A stretch of 47,779 nucleotides of DNA from Piedraia hortae CBS 480.64. Lineage: Eukaryota. Below, piece by piece: positions 33,759 through 36,200 of the stretch. The notes beneath the pieces were generated by a model that saw only the letters and a program-made list of their open reading frames with translations, was not told the DNA's origin and searched no databases. The position numbers and the translations under genes were made by a program. The stretch is from positions 1 through 47,779 of the forward strand of contig MU006035.1 of NCBI GenBank assembly GCA_010093745.1. The letters are read 5' to 3'. How positions within the stretch are numbered: position 1 is the first letter of the stretch; each line of letters begins with the position of its first letter.

Positions 33759-34400
33759 TCATGCAGTGGCTGGCTCCCCAGCAATTACTTTCTCGACCTC
33801 AATCTTAGGCAGTGACGAACCCGTGCCGCCCAAATCAGTGGCACGGGCCTTGGGGTTCTTTGTGTAGTAATTTTGGATGGCTGATTTGATGCCATCTTCA
33901 GCAAGCATAGAACAATGCACTATGGATAGTCAGTATTTCCCGGCTCATCTGAAGAACAAGGACAACTAACGTTTAACCGGTGGCAATGAAAGCTCTTTGG
34001 CAATTTCTGTGTTCCTAATCCGACTCGCTTGCTCTAGCGTCATGCCCTTGACAAGCTCGGTCAGATAACTGCTGCTCGCAATGGCACTTCCACATCCAAA
34101 TGTCTTGAACTTAACGTCCGTTATCCGCTCGTCCTTTGGGTCGACCTTAATCTGAATCTTCATGACATCACCACAGGCCGGGGCACCCACAAGTCCAGTG
34201 CCGACATCTTGCTCGTTCTTTCCCAAGGAGCCCACATTGCGTGGGTTGTTGTAGTGGTCGAGCACTTTTTCGTGGTAGCTACGTTGGCCCCCTCGAACAG
34301 CCGGCGTGGCGCGGGCAAAAGAGGAGACTGCAGGCCGAGGCGTTGACTGCAGCATGCGCGCGGCCTGGGCAGGTGCAGTTGTAAGAGCTCGTTTGAACAT
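33759..34400 (-). CDS. ISU1: Mitochondrial Fe-S scaffold Isu1/IscU
   Basis: YHEKVLDHYNNPRNVGS, GAPACGD and FKTFGCGSAIASSS. Intron 33920-33970 joins LPPVK|LHCSMLAED. Stop at 33759-33761. Confidence 0.96.
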
Positions 34401-34632
34401 GATGTTGTTATCCTCAGAATTCTGGTATTGTTATCGGGAGGCGACGTTGGTTTGAGTTGCCTTCGATGACCTCATGGCACAAGGAACGGTCGAACGGGCC
34501 GAGCCGTAAAAGTGGGGACGCACTCACGGCTTATGCCGTTGCGGGAATCTTTGACGCTGCGACGCGAGCTCACCTCTGCAACCCACAAGCTTCGGTAATA
34601 CCAAAAGATCACTGCCACTGCATCCTTTGAAT

Positions 34633-35274
34633 ATGGCATCCACTCTGGATCACGAGAAGCTGGTCCGCCTGCAAAATGCGCAGCGCACCGGTGAGTAAAT
34701 TTTTAACCGTGGTGACTGGTCATTGCTGACATGCTCTACAGGGTAAGAACCATTGGCATCATCAGCTTCAGCGAACTCGGGACGGCTAATCTCAATATAG
34801 TGGCAAAGGCACGCCGCGGAGACCGACAAAGAAGGTGCACAAGAGCGCCGGCACGGACGACAAGAAATTGCAGACGACGCTGAAGAAGCTCAATGTGCAG
34901 CCAATCAACGCGATAGAGGAGGTCAACATGTTCAAGTCTGATGGAAATGTCATCCACTTCGCCGCACCCAAAGGTCAGTGATCAATCACACAATAGACGT
35001 GCAAACTAACCTAATGGTAGTTCACGCCGCTGTGCAATCCAACACATTCGCAATCTACGGTAAGGGCGAGGAGAAAGAGCTTACCGAGCTCGTGCCTGGC
35101 ATTCTCAATCAGCTCGGTCCTGATAGCTTGGCGTCGCTGCGCAAGCTAGCCGAAAGCTACCAGACCCTGCAGAAGGCCGAGGAGCCCCAGAAGAAGGAGG
35201 CGGACGATGACGATGACGAGATCCCGTCTCTTGTTGAAGGCAAGGACTTTGAGAACAAGGATGAAGTCGAGTAG
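34633..35274 (+). CDS. EGD1: Nascent polypeptide-associated complex beta subunit (BTF3/Egd1)
   Basis: Exons 34633-34690, 34742 (1 nt), 34801-34973 and 35021-35274. Spliced protein: [66 protein letters not shown]. Confidence 0.93.
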
Positions 35275-35376
35275 GGGCGCCTTTGCCATGCGACCCAGGA
35301 GGCAAGCGTGTGCGGCCTATGCAGCGCACTCCTATCATGAGGATACGTGGATGAAAAGTCTCGTTAGCCACTTGTA

Positions 35377-36060
35377 CTACGTTCGTCTACTTTGTGCTGG
35401 TTCAATGAGAGGCGTGTTGGTCAATCCTATGGCGTCCAGGACTCCTGCTTCCCGCTGCATGATTATTGCGCCCCTCGGGTTCAGCTGACGGTAATAAGCC
35501 GGGTCTTGGCTGACCTGCTGAAAGCCCCGTTTTCTGTACCATTCTAAGCCGTCCAAGTTGGCTTCCCATACGTGAGCACAAATGCCAGTAATAGCATATT
35601 TCTCAACCGCCTCTTTTGCCAGAGCATTGAGCATCATGGTGGCAATGCCGTGTGCGCGATATGGTGCGTACACGGCAAGGGTGCTGATGTACAATACTGG
35701 TCCACCCCTCGAGGACGGAACGAGAGGGTCAGGGAACAATCGACAGCGCATCGCCCCAACGAGCTTGCCGCCCTTCCTATCTCCCGTGCCAGCATCATCG
35801 TGCCAAACGGCGACCAGAGTAATGGAATTCGCGACCTGATCATTGATTATCTCAGAGTAGAAGCTTTGCGGGTATGGAATGGGCAGGAGCAAGCCGTTTA
35901 ACCGTTTAAGCCAGGGCAGATCATCTTTGACGCAGTGTCGGAGGTCAAATTGAGGTGGCGGAGCAGCCTGCGGTGCTGACGACACTACAGAACATTTTTC
36001 GGGTAACGAGACCGGCAACCTGCCACGGTCCAGCCAAGCGGTCAGCGATGACTGCGGCAT
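35377..36060 (-). CDS. GNAT acetyltransferase, Naa50/Nat5-like
   Basis: LLPIPYPQSFY, LYISTLAVYAPYRAHGIAT (acetyl-CoA motif A) and HVWEANLDGLEWYRKRGF. Confidence 0.8.
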   Translation of the reverse strand: MPQSSLTAWLDRGRLPVSLPEKCSVVSSAPQAAPPPQFDLRHCVKDDLPWLKRLNGLLLPIPYPQSFYSEIINDQVANSITLVAVWHDDAGTGDRKGGKLVGAMRCRLFPDPLVPSSRGGPVLYISTLAVYAPYRAHGIATMMLNALAKEAVEKYAITGICAHVWEANLDGLEWYRKRGFQQVSQDPAYYRQLNPRGAIIMQREAGVLDAIGLTNTPLIEPAQSRRT

Positions 36061-36200
36061 GATGGTTGACGCGTCGCTAACGTCATACCGCTAGCGCGGG
36101 GCGCGGGGCGCGGGACGCGGGGCTTGGCGGGGCTCGACGTCATGTCGATGTCAAAAACCGTGAGGCAAGAGTAAATCTGAGAGGCGCATCCACTCTGTCC
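36061..36200. promoter_or_regulatory. 140-nt bidirectional promoter with (GCGCGGG)x4 array and CRE-like ACGTCA sites
   Basis: Lies between divergent ATGs at 36060 and 36201. gcgcggg repeats at 36094-36121. ACGTCA at about 36080 and 36137. Confidence 0.55.

Follow-up and report, generated by a model that had tools for sequence, protein, structure and literature searches.

Evidence for a conserved single-nucleotide exon inside a glycine codon of the NAC-beta gene of Piedraia hortae

In the Piedraia hortae gene for NAC-beta (Egd1/BTF3), a subunit of a chaperone bound to ribosomes, we conclude with high confidence that the G at position 34742 is by itself a constitutive internal exon, flanked by two ordinary short introns of the U2 type (51 and 58 nt) that both lie inside the codon for Gly20. 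The gene lies in a stretch of assembled DNA of 47,779 bases (the window), where its letters agree to the base with those given, with their coordinates, in a first-pass annotation of the same DNA. Three hallmarks of a single-nucleotide exon are present, in that two complete U2-type introns stand one base apart, one base is kept between the outer exons in the mRNA, and the phases of those exons are incompatible. Exons of this kind are already known; what is new here is the NAC-beta case, which stands out by how deeply it is conserved and by how many gene models go wrong because of it.

The gene is read from the forward strand. The 5' UTR of its mRNA covers at least 34612..34632, as given by the start of an RNA contig at 34612 and the ATG at 34633, and the coding part of exon 1 (34633..34690, covered by the contig to 34690) comprises 19 codons and the first G of Gly20. 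Intron 1 (34691..34741, 51 nt), which is missing from the RNA contig and has a homologous intron in 72 of 80 related loci, carries the donor gtgagt, the motif ctgac at 34726-34730 and the acceptor ctacag. It is followed by the one-base exon (34742..34742), the middle base of the Gly20 codon GGT, and then by intron 2 (34743..34800, 58 nt), with the donor gtaaga, the motif ctaat at 34786-34790 and the acceptor atatag, for which sequence, RNA and relatives all speak. Exon 3 (34801..34973, covered by the contig) opens T GGC AAA GGC ACG CCG CGG, that is, with the third base of Gly20 and then GKGTPRR..APK, and encodes the basic motif near the N-terminus as well as the first part of the NAC domain. 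Intron 3 (34974..35020, 47 nt, canonical GT..AG) lies inside that domain and corresponds to a contig joint that skips 47 bases, GT..AG (cut +2). The coding part of exon 4 (35021..35274) is known from the sequence and the spliced translation and ends with the stop codon at 35272-35274, and the 3' UTR (35275..35389) extends to a poly(A) site marked by a loose A-rich end behind 35389. A counterpart of intron 3 is present in 75 of the 80 loci; in two of these (L070 and L072) the NAC-domain intron begins GC (G-gcaagt) about 172 bases after the GKG codon and appears to be a GC-AG intron.

The first-pass annotation had described two complete GT-AG introns around a lone G, and these can be read directly from the sequence. 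Each of introns 1 and 2 has its own donor, a branch-like motif 11-12 nt from its end and a YAG acceptor, and the acceptor of the first physically overlaps the donor of the second (cAG-G-GTaaga). The Gly20 codon is split three ways, its two G's coming from exon 1 and the micro-exon and its T from exon 3. The bare motif YAGGGTRAG is unremarkable and not enriched in the window, where it was observed once (34739-34747) against 1.25 occurrences expected from shuffles. What goes beyond chance is its position, in a 110-base gap where the exon phases differ by exactly one base.

The NAC-beta gene is flanked by two genes on the minus strand. The divergent upstream neighbour (33969-34430), which is covered by an RNA contig over 34000-34427, encodes an Isu-like Fe-S scaffold (NifU_N, E 3.6e-43), and it starts no more than about 200 bases from the NAC-beta ATG. 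Downstream, a convergent GNAT acetyltransferase ORF (35380-36090) ends at about 35377-35379. With its poly(A) site at about 35389, the NAC-beta mRNA therefore reaches into the final codons of this ORF.

When 34633-34690, 34742, 34801-34973 and 35021-35274 are joined, the resulting 486 nt translate exactly into the database protein P0001, "transcription factor BTF3 [Piedraia hortae CBS 480.64]", so the deposited P. hortae protein is already correct. Residues 4-159 of P0001 align with residues 5-160 of human BTF3 from ribosome-NAC structures (7qwq chain) without a gap (E 2.8e-45), an alignment that takes in the basic N-terminal ribosome-binding stretch, and the NAC domain (PF01849) is recognised in the whole protein with E 1.2e-24 and in exon 3 with E 1.6e-15. 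On the strength of this domain and of the collinearity with the solved BTF3, the predicted product is assigned to NAC-beta (Egd1/Btt1/BTF3).

The reading frame depends on the single base. The flanking exons are in phases 1 and 2, which are incompatible without it, and the same phases are found in all 73 full arrangements described below. As the first-pass annotation had anticipated, skipping the G in one large intron shifts the frame, and the computed translation then stops after 46 residues; its further statement that retention of intron 2 leads to a stop also agrees with the computed translation, in which the stop comes after 20 residues (after 21 if intron 1 is retained). The same annotation had suggested that such retention might serve as an NMD-coupled control point, which is speculation; almost any retained intron yields a premature stop, and no stop-containing isoform was found among the contigs of the RNA run used here (X1), which drop rare forms.

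Evidence for the mature junction comes from this one public run, whose library type was guessed ('RNA?') and whose assembled contigs were inspected over 34000-36000. The run behaves as RNA, as judged from the A-rich, poly(A)-like loose end behind 35389. Among its contigs there is no partly spliced form and no lariat, species that assembled contigs would not reveal. An intron-free contig of 534 nt lies on 34612-34690, 34800-34971 and 35019-35301 with no other letters, and its first joint skips 109 bases and not 110, so that the mRNA reads ACCG+G+TGGC, the very junction string that the first-pass annotation had foretold; this is one contig from one run, and X1 may be the same data that lie behind the deposited gene model. 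The contig differs from the genome at no position, which speaks against the view that a base is missing from an exon through an assembly or base-calling error and that a plain in-frame intron of 110 nt is present. Although the window is a single assembly and the first-pass annotation had itself named a miscalled base as something that would undo its reading, 72 independently assembled loci share both the phase mismatch and the inner site, and an error of this kind is about as improbable as any explanation that we weighed.

Mature mRNA by itself fits equally well a single intron of 109 nt with non-canonical ends, for example GT..TA (34691-34799) or TG..AG (34692-34800), in which the inner AG-G-GT would be an unused bystander. 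The positions G34690, g34691, G34742 and g34800 are all G, and for this reason the mRNA cannot tell which G was kept; indeed, the aligner itself labels the joint as 109 bases, GT..TA, and gives 3 letters as ambiguous. Such a skip could be placed in four registers (GT..TA, TG..AG, GA..GT and AG..TG), however, and GT..AG ends occur in none of them. The comparison with related loci also weighs against this reading.

A metagenome scan with exon 3 as query returned 80 loci, this orthologue evidence consisting of DNA, and in 72 of them the complete layout of G, intron, G, intron and N was found, with exon 1 ending in ..R-I/T and the first G, and with N followed by GGN-AAR-GGN. These 72 full loci were grouped by intron 12-mers into 55 clusters, which gives 56 representatives including the window. 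A comparison of the ag-G-gt arrangement across related loci had been proposed in the first-pass annotation, and the arrangement turns out to be invariant in all 55 clusters. Among the 56 representatives, a(-2), g(-1), G, g(+1) and t(+2) do not vary and intron interiors carry about 0 bits; the position before the inner ag-G-gt is always C or T, in the second donor, +3 is A in 53 and +5 is G in 52, and CTRAY stands at a distance of 5-27 nt from the inner acceptor in 54 representatives and of 10-21 nt from the outer one in 55. The combination of YAG-G-GTR with an upstream CTRAY occurs in 54 of the 56 representatives versus 46 of 11,200 shuffles (0.4%). The micro-exon base is G in 73/73 full arrangements (72 loci and the window), an invariance that is partly forced by the Gly codon itself, and the third base of that codon, N, is free to differ (C in 21 representatives, T in 18, A in 16 and G in 1).

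These observations make the single 109-nt intron improbable. An unused inner site would not be expected to stay invariant, together with its branch motif, in 54-56 of 56 diverged loci, and since N is A, C or T in relatives, the shifted acceptor would have to vary by lineage between GT..NA and GT..NC. We therefore infer that the base retained is G34742 itself, and not a neighbouring G. The proposal of the first-pass annotation, that a one-base exon is obligatory for building NAC-beta, is upheld by the 109-base skip in RNA, by a product that equals the deposited protein and aligns gaplessly with human BTF3, and by the invariance of AG-G-GT in the 55 clusters.

The introns differ greatly in length across these arrangements, from 51 to 487 nt for intron 1 and from 58 to 252 nt for intron 2. 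Those of Piedraia (51 and 58 nt) are the shortest of all 73 arrangements, in which the medians are 93.5 and 131 nt, and first introns of 475-487 nt are found in L001, L004 and L009. Introns 1 and 2 were also compared with each other; no similarity was found between them (median z -0.1 in the 56 representatives), and an origin by intron duplication was rejected.

The remaining eight loci are of several types. Three are truncated, L071 within intron 1 (it shows ag-G-gtaagc) and L073 and L079 within intron 2. L055, L065 and L067 are cDNA-like, being intron-free throughout, with an uninterrupted RIGGKG; among the 80 loci there is no cDNA/genomic pair from the same species, and the best cDNA-like locus is 86% similar to a locus with all three introns. 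L069 and L078 are genomic and contain a 5' UTR intron and the NAC-domain intron, and their Gly codon holds none, so that they too read RIGGKG. Among the 74 genomic loci in which the region is fully visible, both introns are thus present in 72, neither is present in two, and in no case is just one present. In L069 (640-1320) and L078 (1-660), the exon 1 peptide (..AQAAAVRIG) resembles chytrid proteins, which for L069 may give a hint of its lineage and only that; neither locus has a close named relative, the best matches of L069 being Myriangium (83%) and Synchytrium (82%). In L079 (1-560), the last 128 bases of intron 2 are kept and the NAC-domain intron is absent, a combination seen in no other of the 80 loci, and this sequence may be a partly spliced transcript from which intron 2 is removed last, or it may stem from a genome in which intron 3 has been lost.

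Protein databases bear a second trace of the one-base exon, in the form of wrong gene models. In a junction-blind sample, made up of the best 120 database proteins found with exon 3 alone, 28 read ..RI-G-GKG, 38 have extra residues, two lack a Gly and one lacks the motif, and the other 51 have another or a truncated N-terminus, many of them being unspliced ORF calls. Of the 43 NCBI-named entries among these best 120, as tallied by hand, the junction is correct in only four (Piedraia, Uncinocarpus, Endocarpon and Letharia), and 24 unnamed, transcript-like proteins, mostly from contigs of about 1 kb, read ..RIG-GKG... In a second sample, obtained with an Aspergillus venezuelensis protein as query and leaving out rows tallied earlier, five of 57 further named entries are correct; this sample takes in Aspergillus fumigatus, A. 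niger ATCC 1015, A. oryzae, A. flavus and A. terreus, all of which deviate, and the junction is wrong as well in the entries for Coccidioides, Paracoccidioides and Blastomyces. For Eurotiales, 37 of 38 named NAC-beta proteins deviate and one is correct, and these deviations, which are seen in protein models, imply that the same one-base exon is likely to be present there. With a query that includes the junction, and is thereby biased towards correct models, 29 of 44 named entries are correct, among them chytrids, early yeasts and several other annotated genomes of Dothideomycetes. Correct models are few because gene finders cannot model an exon of one base and resort to in-frame workarounds. 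From the site of the error it is six codons downstream to the basic stretch aligned with RRKKK, which has been described as the ribosome-binding motif of NAC-beta (PMC8745203).

The commonest error is a single extra residue (I, T, D, E, N, A or H), found in 9 of the 43 and 20 of the 57 named proteins, and it could also be taken at face value, as a sign that splicing runs from the second GT of the donor (gtgaGT, 34695) to the acceptor at 34800, a join that is in frame, adds one residue (RTG-D-GKG) and stays open for 162 residues. The RNA contig skips 109 bases and not 106, however, with no extra letters, and the extra residue occurs only in proteins from genome annotation and in none of the 24 transcript-like proteins. 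Its identity is foretold by the donor letters, with gtAT plus N giving Ile, gtAC Thr, gtGA Asp or Glu, gtAA Asn or Lys, gtGC Ala and gtCA His, and the prediction is matched in two pairs of locus and species, in that L041 (gtatgt, N=C) foretells the Ile of the Pyrenophora teres model and L016 (gtatgt, N=T) the Ile of the Teratosphaeria model. The extra residue is thus explained by predictors that use the second GT of gtNNgt, 4 bases downstream of the true donor, and the models without Gly probably arise from an acceptor 2 bases downstream when N is A. As the main product of the gene, the form spliced from 34695 is very improbable, and it could occur as a minor isoform.

With the one-base exon as the preferred reading, its age can be considered from the placement of the metagenome loci, which were assigned by tblastn of named proteins (from GKG onward) at similarities of 93-99%, a measure of resemblance and not a phylogeny. 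In this way, L023 (96%, Wilcoxina mikolae) and L036 (94%, Choiromyces venosus) were placed in Pezizomycetes, L026 and L051 (93%, Oidiodendron maius) in Leotiomycetes, L022 (93%, Pseudevernia) in Lecanoromycetes, L003 (96%, Rhinocladiella) in Eurotiomycetes, and L015 and L048 (99%, Ophiobolus), L041 (98%, Pyrenophora teres) and L024 (97%, Didymella) in Dothideomycetes, the class to which P. hortae itself belongs (order Capnodiales). Loci with the full layout therefore resemble members of five classes of Pezizomycotina, and because of this breadth the arrangement is best regarded as inherited and not as a local accident. On these similarity-based placements, the arrangement seems to have arisen at the base of Pezizomycotina or close to it. 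We lean slightly towards the view that the one-base exon dates to the common ancestor of the subphylum, for which can be offered the DNA of the five classes, the annotation artefacts in Eurotiales (Aspergillus, Penicillium) and in Orbiliomycetes, and a pattern of loss in which both introns are gone and never just one.

How so small an exon could be spliced follows from general features of fungal introns. Intron definition is the usual mode for short fungal introns, and where splice sites are paired across the intron there is no minimum exon length. There is no room on cAG-G-GUAAGA for U1 at the second donor (-3 to +6) together with the factors that sit where intron 1 ends, and since these two splice sites overlap, the most likely course is that the introns are taken out in succession, by intron definition, an order of events that we infer from the anatomy of the site. 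Either order would be workable. If intron 1 were removed first, ..CCGG-gtaaga would present a normal donor for the second step, and if intron 2 were removed first, ctacag-GTGGC would present a normal acceptor. The site would in this way act like a ratchet point of recursive splicing that keeps one base. Ratchet points, or zero-length exons, are reportedly known from work on Drosophila Ubx. They resemble the NAC-beta site in that a 3' splice site is followed directly by a 5' splice site, and excision of the upstream intron leaves a fresh donor; however, a ratchet point keeps no base, whereas the NAC-beta site keeps one, which is coding, and it is thus not a zero-length exon.

Two introns packed together in a fungal gene also bring to mind the stwintron, in which an inner intron interrupts a splice signal of an outer one. 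Fungal stwintrons have been described in Pezizomycotina and, like the NAC-beta introns, involve consecutive splicing of a compound intervening sequence (PMC5587772; PMC5639578; PMC9024468), and the types [D1,2] and [A2,3] are a single base away from the NAC-beta layout (PMC5587772; PMC9024468). In a stwintron, however, one splice signal is interrupted and nothing is retained, whereas the two NAC-beta introns are intact and independent, neither lacking any signal in the primary transcript, and they leave one base between them in the mRNA. Moreover, [D1,2] needs a T after the first intron and [A2,3] needs an A before and a G after the second, and the sequence has G and G..T at these places. A stwintron is therefore extremely improbable, and the distinction from stwintrons that was drawn in the first-pass annotation holds, as the interrupted signal that defines them is absent. 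A term search of the stwintron papers (PMC5587772; PMC5639578; PMC9024468) returned no passage on micro-exons or NAC.

One-base exons have been described in Arabidopsis APC11 (PMC4674806), in Fusarium CYP621A (PMC12940212) and in Coprinopsis cinerea (PMC12230235), and in the literature searched no report was found that links NAC-beta to one. In APC11, as in NAC-beta, a constitutive one-base exon lies between canonical introns and was missed by annotation (Guo & Liu 2015, PMC4674806). Its authors argue for intron definition, with the introns removed one after the other and with no minimum exon length where pairing occurs across the intron, and they cite recursive splicing as a model (PMC4674806). 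APC11 is, however, a plant gene in which the identity of the base is described as irrelevant to splicing (PMC4674806), whereas the NAC-beta exon belongs to a housekeeping gene of a fungus and supplies the central G of a Gly codon, in a layout that recurs in 55 clusters. A further parallel is Fusarium CYP621A, which shares with NAC-beta the AG-G-GT core, a G that stands second in a Gly codon of a conserved motif and the argument from a phase-1/phase-2 mismatch, which is supported by reads, and which its authors term the first one-nucleotide exon in a fungal gene (Nelson & Syed 2026, PMC12940212). That case concerns a rarely expressed P450 in one genus (PMC12940212), in contrast to the highly conserved NAC-beta, with loci that resemble five classes. 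In the basidiomycete Coprinopsis cinerea, a long-read annotation lists 13 exons of 1 nt in 13 genes, which shows that one-base exons recur within a fungal genome; NAC goes unmentioned in the portion of its supplement text that was searched (PMC12230235).

Single-base exons represent the lower limit of what a spliceosome can define, and the NAC-beta case adds an RNA-backed example in an abundant housekeeping gene, found across a large part of a fungal subphylum. Because the arrangement is conserved across so much of that subphylum, a natural mutagenesis has already been run, in which evolution has left all positions free to vary save YAG-G-GTR and the branch motifs. On the practical side, most automatic NAC-beta gene models go wrong exactly at the one-base exon. 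If the exon is ancestral to Pezizomycotina, it would be the most widely and deeply conserved single-nucleotide exon known. It would then also provide, in nature, a setting where overlapping sites oblige two spliceosomes to work in succession, and it would possibly tie NAC-beta dosage to splicing capacity.
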